Positions 58,158 to 64,000 are shown, counted from the first letter of the stretch. The stretch is DNA of 64,000 nucleotides from Minwuia thermotolerans (GCA_021604565.1 BQJF01000012.1:6429-70428); one strand, 5' to 3'. Notes: generated from the sequence alone by a model not told the origin. Program-made: numbers and translations.

Positions 58158-58745
58158 TCAGGCAAGCAGCTCCGACGCCGTCACCACACTTCGGGCAATG
58201 TCGGCAATCTTCTTCTTCTCGTTCATCGCGGTGCGCCGCAGCAACGAATAGGCGGCCGGTTCATCGACGCCCTTGCTGCGCATCAGTATCCCTTTCGCCC
58301 GCTCGATCACCTTGCGGTCTTCCAGCGCGCCCTTCGTTTCCTCAAGCTCCTTCCGCAGGCGGGAGAAGGCGTTGAAGCGACTGATCGCCATATCGACGAT
58401 GGACCGGACACGGGACTGCACCAGACCATCGACGATATAGGCCGAAACGCCCGCCTCGATGGCCTGGTCGATCATCGCCCGGTCGGAATGGTCCACGAAC
58501 ATGGCAATCGGGCGTCGCACATCGCGGCTCACCTGGAACATCTGCTCCAGCACGTCACGGCTGTGATCCTCCAGATCGATCACGATGACATCCGGATCCA
58601 GGGCAAAAATTCGCCGCTGCAGGTCAAATGTATCGGTGATCAGGTGCGCATCCACCTCACCCGCGCCTGCCAGCCCATCCACCAGAATGGCCGCACGCAC
58701 GGGATTGCTGTCGATGACCGCTACTTTGAGGGGCGCTTTTTGCAT
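58158..58745 (-). CDS. nasT: ANTAR response regulator NasT
   Basis: Receiver-like N-terminus (DPDVIVIDL, RPIAMFVD, AGVSAYIVDGL) plus ANTAR domain RKVIERAKGILM..EPAAYSLLRRTAMN; start at ATG 58745. Confidence 0.93.
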   Translation of the reverse strand: MQKAPLKVAVIDSNPVRAAILVDGLAGAGEVDAHLITDTFDLQRRIFALDPDVIVIDLEDHSRDVLEQMFQVSRDVRRPIAMFVDHSDRAMIDQAIEAGVSAYIVDGLVQSRVRSIVDMAISRFNAFSRLRKELEETKGALEDRKVIERAKGILMRSKGVDEPAAYSLLRRTAMNEKKKIADIARSVVTASELLA

Positions 58746-58873
58746 TGCAGCAAAAGAATGCCGCGATGCACAATAATCCGTCAAGCCGTTTGCGTCGGGG
58801 CGCCGCTTCCGGGGGCCGGGAAACCGGGCCGGAATTAGCCATTTGTTCACGGTCGCCTGCAATGCTGCAAGGT

Positions 58874-59545
58874 ATGCGCATTCCCTTGCCATCCCTGCCC
58901 CTTGCCGTACTGCGCGCCCGCCGCCGCCAGGGTGGATTCACGCTGGTGGAACTGATGGTCAGCGTATCGATCATCGGCATCCTGATGGCCATCGGCATCC
59001 CGCACTTCCGCCTCTACATCCTGGAATCACGCCTGGAAGGCGCGATCCCCTACCTGACCCAGATCCAGGCCCGGCAGCGCATCCACAAGCTGAGCAACGG
59101 CAAGTACTGCTGCGACACCGGCGGCCTTGGCGAGAAGAATCTGGAAGAGAAACTGGGGCTGAGCATCGAGGAGACGGGCGATTTCTGCTTCGTCTTCATC
59201 TGCACCGACAGCGATCTTTGCGAGGCGACCAGCGCCGCTGGCTTCATCTCCGCCGCCGAGACTGGCGATCCGACGCCGGAGTTCGAGGTCTGGGCAGTCC
59301 TGCGACAGACGACAGGTCTCGACGTGAGCGGCCCGAATTCTTCGACCTGCACTCCACACAACGAGAAGAGGGGGCCGGAAGGCTGGGTCGCCGTCAGCAC
59401 CTCATCGGAGGAGGGTCGGCAGGGCCAGGCCGTCGTGCTGCGCTATCCCGCACCAGTCAACGGCCTGGATTCAGTGACGAGCGCACGCGGGATCAAGCAT
59501 GTCTGGAACGGGGGCTTGAGTCTGACCGATGCCATGCGCCCCTGA
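58874..59545 (+). CDS. Type IV pilin-like protein (major/PilE-like)
   Basis: Class III signal RRRQGG|FTLVELMVSVSIIGILMAIGIPHF; Cys-rich globular part; start 58874 or 58862. Confidence 0.85.
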   Translation: MRIPLPSLPLAVLRARRRQGGFTLVELMVSVSIIGILMAIGIPHFRLYILESRLEGAIPYLTQIQARQRIHKLSNGKYCCDTGGLGEKNLEEKLGLSIEETGDFCFVFICTDSDLCEATSAAGFISAAETGDPTPEFEVWAVLRQTTGLDVSGPNSSTCTPHNEKRGPEGWVAVSTSSEEGRQGQAVVLRYPAPVNGLDSVTSARGIKHVWNGGLSLTDAMRP

Positions 59546-60221
59546 CACAGCAAGGTCGACTGACGCCGCCGCCCGCCAGGCCGGGTTCACCCTGGTGGAG
59601 GTTATGGCGGCCGGGGTGATTCTCTCCGTACTGGCTCTGGGCCTTGCCCACATGTGGGCCGCCGTGGGGGCGCAGTCGATTGATCTTACCGTTCGCCAGA
59701 AGGCGGTTCTGGTCCTCAATGGAGAGATGGAGCGGCTCAGCAGCCTGTATTTCTTCACCGGCTTCGGCGCAATCACGTCGACGGATACCAGCGGTTACGA
59801 CACGCCGACCGGTTTCGTCGATGACCGTGTCATCTATCGCAGCGCCACGAATGCATTCATGGCGACTGGCGGCGACGCCTTCGTTGTCGATCAGGCGACA
59901 TTCCTGGCCGGGGCGGACTCACTGGTGCTGCTGCAGGATGCCGTGGGCACATCCGATGACCGCAACTTTGTCTGGATCGACCGGGAGCGCAACATCGTCG
60001 GGCGTCTGAGCTGGGTCGAGGAGGACGTCGCCAAGCAGAGGACCTGCGACGGCCAGGACTGCTTGTGCTTTGACTGGGCCGGGGGGCCCGGTGGCACCGA
60101 ATGCCGGGAGGTCACACTGTATCTGGAGTTTCCGTTCCGCATGACGGCAACGGGACCGGCGGAGATGGATCAGCCAACCCTGATCATGCCACTGAAGACC
60201 GTGGTGGGGCGCTGGCGATGA
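59529..60221 (+). CDS. Minor pilin-like protein (PilV/GspI position)
   Basis: RQAG|FTLVEVMAAGVILSVLALGL. Confidence 0.8.
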   Translation: MPCAPDTARSTDAAARQAGFTLVEVMAAGVILSVLALGLAHMWAAVGAQSIDLTVRQKAVLVLNGEMERLSSLYFFTGFGAITSTDTSGYDTPTGFVDDRVIYRSATNAFMATGGDAFVVDQATFLAGADSLVLLQDAVGTSDDRNFVWIDRERNIVGRLSWVEEDVAKQRTCDGQDCLCFDWAGGPGGTECREVTLYLEFPFRMTATGPAEMDQPTLIMPLKTVVGRWR

Positions 60222-60832
60222 GGCCTGACCGGAACGACACCCGAAAGCGTCGGGACCGTGGCTTCACCCTGCCGGAGATGGCCGTTGCCGGGGCGGTCAG
60301 CGCCTTCCTGATGCTGGCGGCCTACGAGCTGCTGCTGACAGGGGCGGAGTTCCAGGCAGAGGCAGAGAGCCGGATCCGACTGAACCAGCAAGCCCGTGCC
60401 AGCTTCGAGACGCTGATGAACGGCACCATCGTGAACGGCGGCATCGGAACCGATCTGACCAATCAGGTACAGGGCGTGCGCGGCCAGACAACCCTGCCGC
60501 TGACCGCCCTGCGCAATGACTACCGGTTGCGTCTGACCGACAATGGTCTGCAGCACGACGGCGACCAGGTGCCCGGCTTCACCGTCCAGTGTACCGGAGC
60601 CGGTGCGCCATTGCCCGACTGCACCGATGCCGACGACACGCAGACCGTGACCGGCTGGATCGCGACAGACCCGGACCTTTCCGACACCGCTCGCAGCGTG
60701 GACGGTCGTACGGTCGAGGCCGGTATCACAATCGTGGATCCCTGGCAGGTACAGCGCCCACGCGGTCGCCCGGCTGAAGCCGTGGAGACCTATCGCACCA
60801 TCATAACCCGGCGGTCGGAGGGCCTGTTGTGA
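60218..60832 (+). CDS. Minor pilin-like protein (PilW/GspJ position)
   Basis: RRDRG|FTLPEMAVAGAVSAFLMLAAYELL; ATG 60218 overlaps the previous stop. Confidence 0.8.
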   Translation: MRPDRNDTRKRRDRGFTLPEMAVAGAVSAFLMLAAYELLLTGAEFQAEAESRIRLNQQARASFETLMNGTIVNGGIGTDLTNQVQGVRGQTTLPLTALRNDYRLRLTDNGLQHDGDQVPGFTVQCTGAGAPLPDCTDADDTQTVTGWIATDPDLSDTARSVDGRTVEAGITIVDPWQVQRPRGRPAEAVETYRTIITRRSEGLL

Positions 60833-61455
60833 CGCCCCGAAGATCCCGAAACCAGCAACGCCAGTCCGGCTATGCCATCGCCGCCGTCAGCTTCATCGGC
60901 ATGATCGCGATGGCCGGGGCAGCGTCGATGCTGTCGACTGCGCCAGTCGCGGAAGTGGCGGAAATCGAGGAAAACCTGTTGCAGGTCCGTGGTCACTGGG
61001 CATCGGTCGGCATGTTCACCTATGCCATCAGCCGGGGACGACAGGATGGCGCCTGTCCGGGTCTGTGCCTGCTGGGCGACGCCACCCGGGTCGGCAGCTA
61101 TCAGGACTATGTCGAGGAAATCTACAACGCCAAGAACAAGAACCTGACGACGAACAACCCCTCATCCATGCGTTGGACCTACGATGAGATCAATGACGAC
61201 TACCATGTCCAGCTAACCTCCACTGTCAGCGACCTGAGTCTGTTGCTCCTGGATGGCAAACTGCTGTTCGAGACCGAACTCGACGACTTCGGGGACTTCT
61301 TCGATGCCAAGAGAGCCGGCATCATATCGGCACAGACCCGTGCCGAATTCTGTACCGGGCTGGCGATTGCCAATGCCGCCTGCCTGACCACGATACTCAA
61401 CCTGAACAACAGCGGCATTGCCCGCGTTCAGGACTTCCGGATACTCCGCCCATGA
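60829..61455 (+). CDS. Atypical pilin-like protein lacking Glu5 (PilX/GspK position)
   Basis: QRQSG|YAIAAVSFIGMIAMAGAASML; basic leader and hydrophobic helix, no E5. Confidence 0.6.
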   Translation: MTPRRSRNQQRQSGYAIAAVSFIGMIAMAGAASMLSTAPVAEVAEIEENLLQVRGHWASVGMFTYAISRGRQDGACPGLCLLGDATRVGSYQDYVEEIYNAKNKNLTTNNPSSMRWTYDEINDDYHVQLTSTVSDLSLLLLDGKLLFETELDDFGDFFDAKRAGIISAQTRAEFCTGLAIANAACLTTILNLNNSGIARVQDFRILRP

Positions 61456-61820
61456 CGGAGAACGTCTTCGCACGCACCCAGGTCGCCGCCCGGACAGCCG
61501 CAACCAGGCCAGCGTCGCCGCGTGGAGCGGAACAGCGAACCGCACGGCGCTATTTCGTTGATGATCCGGCCCTCGTGATCGTCGGCAAGCGCGCGCTGAC
61601 CTGCAAGCTCTGCGACATCTCCTTTGGTGGCGCGATGCTGGAGGGACGCCTGCCATTGAAGATCGACGAACAGTTCCACCTCATGATCCTCGACCTGCCG
61701 GAGTTGCTCTGCCGGGTGGCCCATGTCGGCGAAGGGTATCTCGGCGTCAGCTTTCTGAACGGCAAGGAACTGCATCATGATCTGGGGGAATGGATCCGAA
61801 ACCGGTGCCTGACCCAATGA
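61452..61820 (+). CDS. Stand-alone PilZ-domain protein
   Basis: RTARR (RxxxR) and DISFGG (DxSxGG) motifs. Confidence 0.85.
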   Translation: MTENVFARTQVAARTAATRPASPRGAEQRTARRYFVDDPALVIVGKRALTCKLCDISFGGAMLEGRLPLKIDEQFHLMILDLPELLCRVAHVGEGYLGVSFLNGKELHHDLGEWIRNRCLTQ

Positions 61821-62623
61821 CCGCACTTGGCCAGTTGCTCACACAGGAACCCTGGCTCGCCACGGGCCTTGCCGTTGTTCTGGGGCTGCTGCTGGGCAGC
61901 TTCCTGAATGTCGTCGTCGGTCGCCTGCCTGCTGTGGCTCTGGCCCCCGAGCGGGCGGACGAGTGGCCGGGACTGCTGGTCCGACCCGGTTCCCATTGCC
62001 CGCACTGCCACAATGCCATCCGCTGGCACCATAACCTGCCCCTGCTGGGATGGCTGTTGCTGCGTGGCCGCTGTCATGACTGCAACGCAGCAATACCTGT
62101 GCGCTATCCGCTGCTGGAACTGGCCGGTGGCGTGCTGCTGGGGGTGAGTGTCCACTGGCATGGACCAGATCTGGCGGCACTGGCCATCGGCCTGTTCCTG
62201 CTGGCATTGCTGGCACTGGCCGCGATCGATCTGGAACATCAGATCCTGCCCGATCAGCTTGTCCTGCCCCTGCTCTGGTCCGGACTTCTTGTCAATGCAT
62301 TCAGCGTCCTGACATCACCACAGGATGCAATCCTGGGAGCCGCCGCGGGGTTCCTGTTGCTGACCGGCCTGCGTCTCGCCTATCGCGCCCTGCGCGGCAT
62401 CGACGGCATGGGACAGGGCGATGCGAAGCTGATCGCCGCCATTGGTGCCTGGCTGGGACTGCAGCCGACGATGACCACCCTGCTGATCGCCTTCGTGACC
62501 GGCAGTCTGGTGGCGCTGGTGCTGCATCTGATGCGTCGGCTGGAGCATCGCCAGTGCCTGCCCTTCGGCCCCGGAATCGCTCTTGGGGCGCTGGCGGCCA
62601 GCCTGGGCGTCAGCCTGTTCTGA
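61817..62623 (+). CDS. pilD: Prepilin peptidase / N-methyltransferase
   Basis: GSFLNVVVGRLP, SHCPHC, RGRCHDC, IDLEHQILPD, GMGQGDAKL, LPFGP. Confidence 0.93.
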   Translation: MTALGQLLTQEPWLATGLAVVLGLLLGSFLNVVVGRLPAVALAPERADEWPGLLVRPGSHCPHCHNAIRWHHNLPLLGWLLLRGRCHDCNAAIPVRYPLLELAGGVLLGVSVHWHGPDLAALAIGLFLLALLALAAIDLEHQILPDQLVLPLLWSGLLVNAFSVLTSPQDAILGAAAGFLLLTGLRLAYRALRGIDGMGQGDAKLIAAIGAWLGLQPTMTTLLIAFVTGSLVALVLHLMRRLEHRQCLPFGPGIALGALAASLGVSLF

Positions 62624-62629
62624 AACGGC

Positions 62630-63379
62630 CTATTCGGCGCGGGTGAGACTGGCCTGGCGGGCGGCACCGGGGCTGAAGTCCATCAGCACCCGTGAACTGA
62701 CCGGATGCTTGCCGTAGCGATACTCCATGCGCACGTAGTGCCTTACCTCCGGGCTGTACCACCAGCGCTCGAACCCCGTCCAGTTGGTCGCGGCATTGCG
62801 TGAGCGCATGACGATCACCCAGGTATCGAAGGTACCGGCGGGCACGGTGATGGTTTCCCGCCCCTCCAGAATCCACGACGTGCGATGCACGCGCGGCTGC
62901 TGGTTGGACGTGTACTCGCGGGTGAAGACAACGGGCCGGCGCATCTGCAATGTCAGGGCATCCGCCGCGTCGATGGAGCGAAACACCACCCAGCGGTGTG
63001 CCGTTGCCGACTGGGCCTCCTGCCTCAGAAATCCATGACGCGTGAACCATTGCCCCGGATCATCCAGCCGCTGGAACCGGGTGATGTCGCCGTCGACGCC
63101 CCTGACCTGCAAGCCATACCCGTCGCTGTACATCCAGCGATCACCGCGCACCCAGCGCGGGGCAGTGACAGCGGGACCCGAGAAATCCTCGACAACCGGG
63201 GTCGTCACCGGTTCCGGTTTTTCCGCGACCCTGGCGGCGGGAGCATCGGCACTAGCACTGGCACTGGCACTGGCACTGGTGGCCGGTTGCCCGGTTCCGG
63301 CATAGCGACCTTCCTGACAGGCCGAGAGCACAAGGCAGGCAATCAGCCCGACAGGCGCGAGCAGCAGTCTCTGTTTCAT
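62630..63379 (-). CDS. Hypothetical lipoprotein
   Basis: Lipobox LSA|C after MKQRLLLAPVGLIACLV; SA-rich linker; ETITVPAGTFDT and WWYSPEV segments. Confidence 0.7.
   Translation of the reverse strand: MKQRLLLAPVGLIACLVLSACQEGRYAGTGQPATSASASASASADAPAARVAEKPEPVTTPVVEDFSGPAVTAPRWVRGDRWMYSDGYGLQVRGVDGDITRFQRLDDPGQWFTRHGFLRQEAQSATAHRWVVFRSIDAADALTLQMRRPVVFTREYTSNQQPRVHRTSWILEGRETITVPAGTFDTWVIVMRSRNAATNWTGFERWWYSPEVRHYVRMEYRYGKHPVSSRVLMDFSPGAARQASLTRAE
63248..63277. repeat. In-frame hexamer tandem repeat (GGCACT)x5 encoding SASASASASA
   Basis: ggcact agcact ggcact ggcact ggcact, one mismatch. Confidence 0.8.
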
Positions 63380-63822
63380 TGTGTTTCCACCCATGCCTGT
63401 CGCACCGTCCGCCCCCGCGCATCCAGTTCATGTTCCAGCAACAGCGCGGGCAGCCATGCCTGCTGCATGGCAGAGGGACGGGTCATGCCGCGAATGATGA
63501 AGTTGCCGTTGTCAGCCTGCCATCCGGCCAGCAGCATGCGGCGATCCCTGTATGTCTGCGGCGCGATCACGCTGGCGTTGGCGAAGTCGGGGATACGGTT
63601 CACCCGGTTGTCGAAGGAGAGAAAGGCCTCGCGCAGCACCAGTTCATCGCGCTGCCCGACGGCCAGGGCCTCCACCGCCGACGCCAGCTCGCTGCGGAAG
63701 CCCGCAACATGGATCAGGCTGTAGTACAGTGGTCCGACCAGCGCGCCCGCCAGCAGCAGGACCGCCAGCAAGCGCGACGAGGCCACCACAAGCGCCCGCG
63801 ATGCACGGTAACGGCGCGCCAT
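63376..63822 (-). CDS. Hypothetical bitopic membrane protein
   Basis: N-terminal hydrophobic helix; start and stop overlap both neighbours. Confidence 0.6.
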   Translation of the reverse strand: MARRYRASRALVVASSRLLAVLLLAGALVGPLYYSLIHVAGFRSELASAVEALAVGQRDELVLREAFLSFDNRVNRIPDFANASVIAPQTYRDRRMLLAGWQADNGNFIIRGMTRPSAMQQAWLPALLLEHELDARGRTVRQAWVETQ

Positions 63823-64000
63823 TACTCATCTTCCTCCAGCGTCCGCATGACGTTCGGAAACGCACGCCCCTTGCCACCCATCAGCGCATCCGCTGCGGAC
63901 GAAAGGCGGCCGCGCTGCTTGCTGACGTAGGCTGTCGTGCCGGAGCGCTGCGCAATGTCCTGGGCGAAGGGTGCGCCCTCGTGCACCACCTTCGGCGTGA
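63822..64000 (-). CDS. C-terminal fragment of a probable secretin (GspD/PilQ family), partial
   Basis: Reads TPKVVHEGAPFAQDIAQRSG...MRTLEEDE*; TPKVV resembles the secretin-terminal ITP(R/K)(V/I)(V/I) motif; stop overlaps the next ATG. Confidence 0.4.
   Translation of the reverse strand, partial: TPKVVHEGAPFAQDIAQRSGTTAYVSKQRGRLSSAADALMGGKGRAFPNVMRTLEEDE

Follow-up and report, generated by a model that had tools for sequence, protein, structure and literature searches.

A predicted type IV pilus-like machine with its own minor pilins in the alphaproteobacterium Minwuia thermotolerans

Described type IV filaments and the Minwuia locus

In its generic definition a type IV filament (TFF) system consists of an ATPase, an inner-membrane platform and a class III pilin, optionally with a prepilin peptidase and a secretin (Denise et al. 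2019). The named classes are the type IVa pili (T4aP), the type IVb pili (T4bP), the mannose-sensitive haemagglutinin (MSHA) pili, the type II secretion system (T2SS), the competence (Com) pili and the Tad pili. T4aP are polyphyletic; hundreds of 'generic' systems are still unassigned, and many others were later reassigned to T4aP (PMC6668835). The locus reported here belongs to Minwuia thermotolerans and was recognized in a stretch of 64,000 nucleotides (GCA_021604565.1, BQJF01000012.1:6429-70428), called the window below, which corresponds to C12:6429-70428 of a 234-contig assembly. Six overlapping open reading frames (ORFs) on the + strand of the window (58874-62623) encode four pilin-like proteins (pilin1 to pilin4), a PilZ-domain protein and a prepilin peptidase (PilD). 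The operon is one arm of a complete machine and not an orphan, and the secretin gene of that machine lies partly inside the window. Searches of the literature on the topic yielded no account of this system, and the Minwuia papers listed deal with other subjects.

T4aP, as described for Pseudomonas, Myxococcus and Thermus, resemble the Minwuia locus in many respects. In both, the major pilin is of class III and has a C-terminal Cys pair of the disulfide type, and the four minor pilins follow the same order, the last of them lacking Glu5 (E5). Both also have a bifunctional PilD, an ATPase that is PilB-like and carries an MshEN-type N-domain, a PilC-like platform, a PilM homologue and a secretin. 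Unlike T4aP, the locus has no PilT/PilU and no PilY1 (control searches for PilY1 were also empty), its PilM is fused to a transmembrane segment and a periplasmic domain, PilN/O/P families are undetectable, and the platform is about 60 N-terminal residues shorter. Its scores remain below the cut-offs, its ATPase falls outside the PilB clade, the whole system is found in one locus, and a module of Ser/Thr kinase, FHA domain and PP2C phosphatase is integrated together with a motif-bearing PilZ.

With the T2SS the locus shares its organization as a single locus, a set of 1+4 pilins (the G + H-I-J-K pattern) with an E5-less K position, the lack of a retraction ATPase and of a tip adhesin, and an ATPase whose C-terminal domain is 44-49% identical to GspE. 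It differs in having no GspC, GspL or GspM families, in pilin globular domains unrelated in sequence to those of GspG-K, in a larger and Cys-bearing major subunit, and in an ATPase outside the GspE clade. Pilin4 has 208 aa as compared to about 320 aa in GspK, and lacks the large GspK alpha-domain.

The MSHA system (MshI-Q; Vibrio, Shewanella) is similar in its MshI, which is comparable to the PilM/N-type fusion found here, in the absence of a dedicated PilT from the locus, and in a minor-pilin block upstream of accessory genes. Control of assembly by cyclic di-GMP (c-di-GMP) is documented for MSHA and plausible for the Minwuia system; the reader would there be PilZ, a protein of its own, and the MshEN motif is absent. 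The secretin scores 75 against an MshL cut-off of 250, the locus has no large protein of the MshQ type, and the MSHA-linked groups do not include its ATPase.

A further comparison concerns the H1 type VI secretion system (H1-T6SS) of Pseudomonas aeruginosa with its threonine-phosphorylation pathway PpkA/PppA/Fha1. There, too, the locus of an envelope-spanning machine includes genes for a Hanks-type kinase, a PP2C phosphatase and an FHA reader. Unlike the locus described here, the type VI system is not a TFF; the Minwuia kinase, a cytoplasmic protein, is joined to an FGE-sulfatase-like domain, and the FHA domain of the TFF clade is carried by a histidine kinase or by the ATPase.

The six-gene operon and its minor pilins

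The genes of the operon overlap by 17, 4, 4, 4 and 4 nt at successive junctions and are translationally coupled. The initial annotation, made from the sequence alone, had described four overlapping prepilin genes (three with G/FTLxE and one with G/YAIAA without E5, the slash standing for the cleavage site), a PilZ gene with intact c-di-GMP motifs and a gene for a bifunctional-type PilD, and all six ORFs were recovered at these positions with the motifs so described. Pilin1 (58874-59545, +; 223 aa) starts with RRRQGG/FTLVELM, has a major-pilin-like alpha1 helix and matches Pfam N_methyl (E 1.3e-9). Pilin2 (59529-60221, +; 230 aa; RQAG/FTLVEVM) matches the same family (E 1e-5) and carries the family signature RQKAxFVLNGEMERL. 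Pilin3 (60218-60832, +; 204 aa; RRDRG/FTLPEMA) is slightly below the N_methyl cut-off (E 3e-4; 20.6 bits against 21.2) and passes NCBIfam TIGR02532 with a score of 18.2 against 16.3; pilin1 and pilin2 pass it as well. The N-termini of all three consist of a basic leader followed by G/FTL(V/P)E and a hydrophobic helix. Pilin4 (60829-61455, +; 208 aa; RQSG/YAIAAV) is pilin-like and has no Glu5. Its start reads RQSG/YAIAAVSFIGMIAMAGAA, its cleavage-site segment is SG/YAIAAVSFIGMIAM, and no Pfam or NCBIfam family matched it.

PilZ (61452-61820, +) is a stand-alone PilZ-domain protein of 122 aa that matches PF07238 (E 8.3e-9; 36.2 bits, cut-off 22.5). The motifs R29xxxR33 and D55xSxxG60 (here D55ISFGG60) are invariant in six orthologues. 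On the basis of the family match and these motifs, PilZ is a candidate c-di-GMP receptor of the machine. PilD (61817-62623, +; 268 aa) contains both domains of a prepilin peptidase/N-methyltransferase, A24_N_bact (PF06750; E 8e-29, 100 bits) and Peptidase_A24 (PF01478; E 1.4e-24, 87 bits), together with the CPHC...CHDC Cys pairs, GQGD and six hydrophobic segments, and has the predicted features of a bifunctional enzyme (PilD/GspO, MEROPS A24A). The longest ORF of pilD starts at 61790; translation more likely begins at 61817, as judged from relatives, whose PilD is 268 aa long and whose pilD gene shares an ATGA overlap with pilZ. The operon is kept in more than 20 independent loci and is therefore far beyond chance. 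Upstream and on the opposite strand lies nasT (58158-58892, -), encoding an ANTAR response regulator. Its listed start at 58892 would overlap pilin1; the start is probably at 58745 (195 aa in relatives), which leaves a divergent intergenic region of 128 bp.

The globular domains of the pilins had been considered Cys-rich and unlike recognized pilins. Conserved Cys residues were found in all four proteins: six invariant ones in pilin1, where GKYCCDTGG with its CC pair is located, four in pilin2, two in pilin3 and four in pilin4. The globular domains matched no Pfam family and no PDB chain. The pilin1 profile matched PDB pilins along the N-terminal helix only, and the profiles of pilin2, pilin3, pilin4 and PilZ gave no meaningful match in PDB. 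When 1.84 billion representative sequences were scanned in full by HMMER, the pilin2 profile picked out a family that is small and discrete, with 347 proteins at E<=1e-3, 157 of them at E<=1e-10. Among 100 members of this family 95 match N_methyl and none matches any other Pfam or pilin globular-domain family. AlphaFold2 models of pilin4 (pLDDT 67.6) and pilin2 (pLDDT 60) show a long alpha1 helix and a sheet of four to five strands; in pilin4 the sheet has five, the last formed by residues 199-205. Foldseek comparison of both models with PDB returned nothing at E<0.2. The C-terminal strand of pilin4, SG..R.QDFR, is invariant.

Alignments of GspG-K and FimU/PilV/W/X were built from reference operons and compared using hhalign. 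With mature proteins, pilin1 was paired with FimU (97.7%) and GspG (98%), pilin2 with PilV (95.8%) and GspI (94.3%), and pilin3 with PilW (95.2%) and GspJ (94.1%), pilin2 and pilin3 along the N-terminal segment only; the sole above-background partner of pilin4 was GspK (14.5%). With globular domains only, all values against GspG-K and FimU/PilV/W/X were below 8%, and the control pairs GspH-FimU, GspI-PilV, GspJ-PilW and GspK-PilX were missed as well. Pilin4 relatives at other loci all lack E5 (G/TILIAVSF, G/GILVGMMMF), as do PilX and GspK. The initial annotation had likened the order of the genes to PilE/V/W/X or GspG/I/J/K, and the gene order and N-terminal segments do match FimU/PilV/W/X and GspH/I/J/K. 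From this order, the loss of E5 in the last gene and the diagonal of best hhalign partners, pilin1 to pilin4 are predicted to be the positional equivalents of these sets, with globular domains of their own. Pilin1 would take the FimU/GspH position, pilin2 the PilV/GspI position and pilin3 the PilW/GspJ position, and pilin4 would be the tip or cap subunit at the PilX/GspK position. They therefore appear to be equivalent in position to ordinary minor pilins and do not amount to a new kind of component. Orthologues of pilin1 (37-88% identity) occur in more than 15 loci, and those of pilin3 are 28-91% identical.

PilI-PilJ recognize PilK, and the last beta-strand of PilK comes from PilY1 in trans, or is its own where PilY1 is absent (PMC13533445). 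Pilin4 is likely to be a K-type cap completed in cis, because no PilY1-like protein is present and its invariant C-terminus is modelled as the final strand.

Composition and classification of the machine

The locus comprises about 17 genes in about 19 kb and holds a full pilus-assembly set. The arm that converges on the operon begins on contig C72 and ends in the window. One end of C12 overlaps an end of C72 (reverse complement) by 141 nt, and an ORF of 595 aa for a histidine kinase with a C-terminal FHA domain (HK-FHA) reads through the junction; the same gene order on a 2-Mb Minwuia contig and on several metagenome contigs supports the join independently. C72 encodes a 196-aa major prepilin, a cytoplasmic protein of 558 aa in which a Ser/Thr kinase is joined to an FGE-sulfatase domain (STK-FGE), a 712-aa GspE/PilB-type ATPase, a 346-aa GspF/PilC-type platform, a 652-aa PilM-like protein and a 311-aa membrane protein. 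The 3' part of the HK-FHA gene and the gene for a PP2C phosphatase are located on C12 past the secretin. The order in this main arm is major pilin, STK-FGE, ATPase, platform, PilM-like fusion, 311-aa protein, HK-FHA, PP2C, secretin, a 148-aa membrane protein (tm148) and a lipoprotein; pilin1 to pilin4, PilZ and PilD form the opposing arm. All 17 ORFs are intact.

In its mature form the major pilin is 183 residues long and has C-terminal Cys residues, and about 60 N-terminal residues are missing from the platform. The 652-aa protein combines a PilM-like domain with one transmembrane segment and a periplasmic domain about 200 aa long. Its profile has three matches in PDB, among them Thermus PilM (2YCH, E 6e-12) and none of them GspL, and it scores 25 with TIGR01175 (cut-off 133); from its domains it is classified as a PilM/N-type fusion. 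The 311-aa protein has a faint PilO match (E 0.9). PilN and PilP families are not detectable with Pfam or NCBIfam among the proteins of the locus. GspC, GspL, GspM and GspG-K gave no match there either in these databases beyond the N-terminal motif.

The features of the superfamily are all found in one cluster: PF00437 (409 bits), PF00482 (168 bits), N_methyl on four proteins, A24 domains and PF00263. The core proteins are all below the NCBIfam cut-offs for T2SS, T4aP and MSHA. The ATPase scores 482 with GspE (TIGR02533; cut-off 630) and 467 with PilB (TIGR02538; 676), and the platform 275 with GspF (TIGR02120; 424). For the secretin the scores are 208 with SctC, 195 with PilQ (TIGR02515; 284), 169 with GspD (TIGR02517; 351) and 75 with MshL (TIGR02519; 250), the SctC score likewise being below its own cut-off. 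MshL TIGR02519 at 1e-60 and PilV TIGR02523 had no match in the genome. With regard to Tad, the TadA-type model scores 53.6 on the locus ATPase against a cut-off of 373, and no further PF00437 or PF00482 match except TrbB was found, Flp pilins not being searched for. By these defining scores the predicted proteins place the locus inside the TFF superfamily and outside T2SS, T4aP, MSHA and Tad.

For the ATPase phylogeny 25 beta- and gamma-proteobacterial PilB and 20 GspE sequences that pass the cut-offs were used as references, along with seven further ATPases encoded downstream of MshL-type secretins. The query side was made up of the Minwuia ATPase and 33 out of its 120 nearest relatives in the database, all 33 with generic names only. 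A careful IQ-TREE run (LG+C20, 560 columns; T4bP, Com and non-proteobacterial T4aP left out) recovered the Minwuia-type ATPases as one side of a branch with 100/100 support and a long stem. Support for the PilB and GspE clades was 100/99 and 99/97, respectively, and the query is in neither. The initial annotation had proposed a distinct type IV filament subtype, and the ATPase tree separates the clade from PilB, GspE and the MSHA-linked ATPases (100/100). The core scores below the equivalog cut-offs and the private pilin2 family point the same way, and the neighbouring genes, which might have turned out to be those of a canonical T2SS or T4aP, encode no core protein that reaches these cut-offs.

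No type IV filament system other than this locus was found in the Minwuia genome. Searches with PF00263, PF00482 and PF00437 detected one secretin, one platform and one GspE/PilB-type ATPase, and the canonical class III prepilins found are all encoded within the locus. PF00437 has two matches, the locus ATPase and TrbB, and PilT/PilU retraction ATPases are absent from them. The second ATPase was considered as PilT or CpaF and ruled out as TrbB adjoining TrbE: at C3:48501-51347 (-) a TrbB/VirB11-type ATPase (337 aa) lies beside a TrbE/VirB4-like gene, which together represent a conjugative type IV secretion module. PilY1-like and Flp/Tad genes, reported as missing from the operon at the outset, are not present at the locus. 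The PilY1 model PF05567 gave no match in the genome, and none in the control genomes.

Taken together, the six genes probably encode the minor pilins, a PilZ adaptor of the c-di-GMP type and the peptidase of a complete T4P-like surface-fibre machine of an unnamed clade present in a few Alphaproteobacteria. A T4P-like pilus is the most likely form of the machine, ahead of a T2SS, because the PilM homology comes without a GspL match, the predicted major pilin of 183 aa has C-terminal Cys residues, and GspC/L/M and GspG-K have no matches. Its operation is most likely that of a non-retractile or single-ATPase T4P. A wider proposal, which leans to the doubtful side, is a new class parallel to T4aP, T4bP, MSHA, T2SS, Com and Tad. 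The marks of such a class would be a separate ATPase clade, four private minor-pilin families, among them that of a small cis-closing K-type cap, a fusion of PilM, transmembrane segment and periplasmic domain, a DUF3108-like secretin lipoprotein, a kinase/PP2C/FHA switch gating the ATPase and, in part of the class, a second input through PilZ and c-di-GMP.

Several points weigh against the surface-fibre interpretation. The clade could fall within a broader T4aP-like radiation, T4bP, Com and non-proteobacterial T4aP being outside the tree. Confidence in the pilin models is low to moderate, and they had no structural match by which to assign them to GspI/J/K; only gene order and N-terminal segments underlie the H/I/J/K assignment, because the comparison of globular domains missed known pairs. 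Pilin4 is lacking in Zavarzinia. PilZ is adjacent to the pilins in only part of the family and was not seen there in several relatives. The PilZ-ATPase contact and the kinase substrates are purely conjectural, and the lack of PilT in the genome (PF00437 search) bears on filament dynamics.

Among the alternatives, the one that survives best is a T2SS-like secretion system, in which a short periplasmic pseudopilus pushes folded proteins through the secretin; it is considered unlikely. The C-terminal part of the ATPase is slightly nearer to GspE (44-49%) than to PilB (40-43%), but GspD gives the secretin a lower score than PilQ or SctC does. In the T2SS, too, the K-type pilin has its strand in cis, and the organization in a single locus is T2SS-like; the major pilin, however, has 183 mature residues with C-terminal Cys as opposed to about 135 aa in GspG, the PilM-like protein profile matches PilM with GspL not among its PDB matches, and no GspC with HR/PDZ domains is present. 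The lack of a retraction ATPase and of a PilY1-type adhesin (subject to the empty PilY1 controls) would suit secretion, but MSHA, T4b and Com pili likewise have no dedicated PilT or PilY1.

Less likely still is an ordinary canonical T2SS (GspH/I/J/K) or T4aP (FimU/PilV/W/X) that is odd only through alphaproteobacterial divergence. The top NCBIfam matches of the ATPase and platform are indeed GspE, PilB, GspF and PilC, but the equivalog cut-offs are all missed by wide margins and the ATPase clade stands apart from PilB and GspE at 100/100. The H-I-J-K gene order and the N-terminal segments fit both systems, whereas PilV TIGR02523 finds nothing in the genome and the 100 pilin2 relatives lack any known globular-domain family. 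The 652-aa protein has PilM homology, and the polyphyly of T4aP, with many 'generic' systems later moved into them (PMC6668835), also speaks for such a placement. On the other side, there are no family matches to GspC/L/M or to PilN/O/P/T/Y1 (the PilY1 controls again being empty), and the clade-specific STK-FGE, FHA, tm148 and DUF3108-like lipoprotein are conserved along with the system.

Assembly, regulation and distribution

In the mechanism proposed for the T4P-like machine, PilD would cleave and methylate five prepilins. Pilin2, pilin3 and the E5-less pilin4 would form a priming complex of the PilI/J/K type at the tip, with the terminal beta-strand coming from pilin4 itself in the absence of a PilY1-like protein, and pilin1 would join this complex to the major pilin. 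The ATPase would polymerize the major pilin on the platform, via the PilM/N-like and PilO/P-like proteins and the secretin. Assembly may be gated post-translationally by phosphothreonine marks set by the kinase, read by FHA and erased by PP2C; the presence of these three inside the locus of the machine suggests such gating. The FHA domain is part of the histidine kinase here and of the ATPase in relatives. PilZ would bring in c-di-GMP, probably by binding the ATPase.

The STK-FGE gene is directly upstream of the ATPase gene in 11/11 loci with that flank visible. Three loci without an HK-FHA gene (L029, L038, L131) have FHA fused to the N-terminus of the ATPase, a pattern that links reading of phosphothreonine to the assembly motor and suggests that threonine phosphorylation read by FHA controls the pilus motor. 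These predicted fusions have 824-902 aa (L029:10001-12700, L038:531-3239, L131:5693-8167), and many further FHA-ATPase fusions of the clade, 780-900 aa long, are in the database (P0125-P0148). Residues 1-140 of the Minwuia ATPase (L006:4174-4600) are an N-terminal extension ahead of the MshEN-type region that has no Pfam match; it occupies the position of FHA in relatives and is a possible docking or phosphorylation region.

The N-domain of the ATPase is of the Pfam MshEN type without the c-di-GMP motif. The motif is present in 0/34 ATPases of the clade (the query and 33 relatives) and in 4/7 MSHA-linked controls. Binding of c-di-GMP by the ATPase N-domain was ruled out on these grounds, and any c-di-GMP input would come via the separate PilZ. 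PilZ is also adjacent to the pilins in G010, a genome of the same genus, in Zavarzinia, in G570 and in locus L042. Control of the machine by c-di-GMP, which the initial annotation had proposed, is plausible from the PilZ motifs; threonine phosphorylation is the better-conserved regulatory signal.

The remaining genes of the main arm lie at the end of the window. The C-terminal end of the secretin occupies 63822-64000 (-), and the gene (645 aa; PF00263, E 1.2e-38) extends past the window to C12:72187; its domains are Secretin and two Secretin_N. Downstream is tm148 (63376-63822, -), a 148-aa bitopic membrane protein with one N-terminal hydrophobic segment and no Pfam or NCBIfam family match; orthologues are present in G010 and at loci L025, L029 and L131. 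The last gene of the converging secretin operon (62630-63394, -) encodes a conserved lipoprotein of 254 aa with the lipobox LSAC and a weak DUF3108-like match. The lipoprotein is 45-57% identical in distant loci, its only match in the PDB profile search was the putative lipoprotein 4fvs (E 0.005), and in every locus showing both it is encoded downstream of the secretin, directly or after tm148. It may be a pilotin or another partner of the secretin.

Zavarzinia and further Alphaproteobacteria carry the locus at 25-60% identity. Pilin4 was found in four of 12 genomes of the genus and in no other genus of the order, and the pilin2 family in 4/400 alphaproteobacterial species of an even sample (about 1%). 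Two of these four species, Zavarzinia sp. CC-PAN008 and, in a different family, G570, share the two-arm layout with PilZ and PilD present; in G600 and several metagenome loci the same genes are rearranged. G010, one of the four genomes of the genus with pilin4, carries a divergent copy of the whole locus elsewhere (C11:22000-52000), with 36-81% identity per protein, by a tyrosine-recombinase fragment. The flanks vary, with nitrate genes here and DctQM in one relative. A functional tie to the adjacent nitrate-assimilation genes was ruled out from this DctQM neighbourhood and from the other context of the G010 locus. The system is rare, accessory, intact and conserved, and probably horizontally mobile. 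A decaying or silent horizontally acquired island without present function, to which the patchy occurrence (4/12 genomes of the genus, about 1% of the Alphaproteobacteria sampled), the varying context and the G010 copy by a recombinase fragment might point, is hardly credible against 17/17 intact ORFs with coupled start/stop overlaps, the absence of stops from every gene across loci at 25-90% identity, and invariant Cys patterns and catalytic and ligand motifs.

Three details of relatives were also observed. In Zavarzinia sp. CC-PAN008 (L028:19502-21116) pilin3 is directly followed by pilZ, and PilD has 168 aa with the peptidase domain only. A Magnetovibrionaceae relative (L029:2630-6342) has two tandem secretin genes of 614 and 623 aa. 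In G570 a 107-aa GIY-YIG gene (L130:12912-13235, -) lies between pilin4 and pilZ on the opposite strand and looks like a small insertion.

Significance

Another unclassified TFF is unsurprising, but this system is well defined and testable through its conserved kinase/FHA/PP2C module and its private minor-pilin families. Through this locus one unassigned 'generic' group is concretely defined by about 17 conserved genes; the pilin2 signature and the kinase-ATPase gene pair serve as easily searched markers. The FHA-ATPase fusions of relatives make control of the pilus motor by threonine phosphorylation directly testable, and pilin4, a small K-type minor pilin that occurs naturally with no PilY1 partner, can serve to test the 'beta-strand licensing' model of filament initiation. 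In the carrier strains of Minwuia and relatives this is the only pilus or secretion filament, and it probably decides attachment or secretion.

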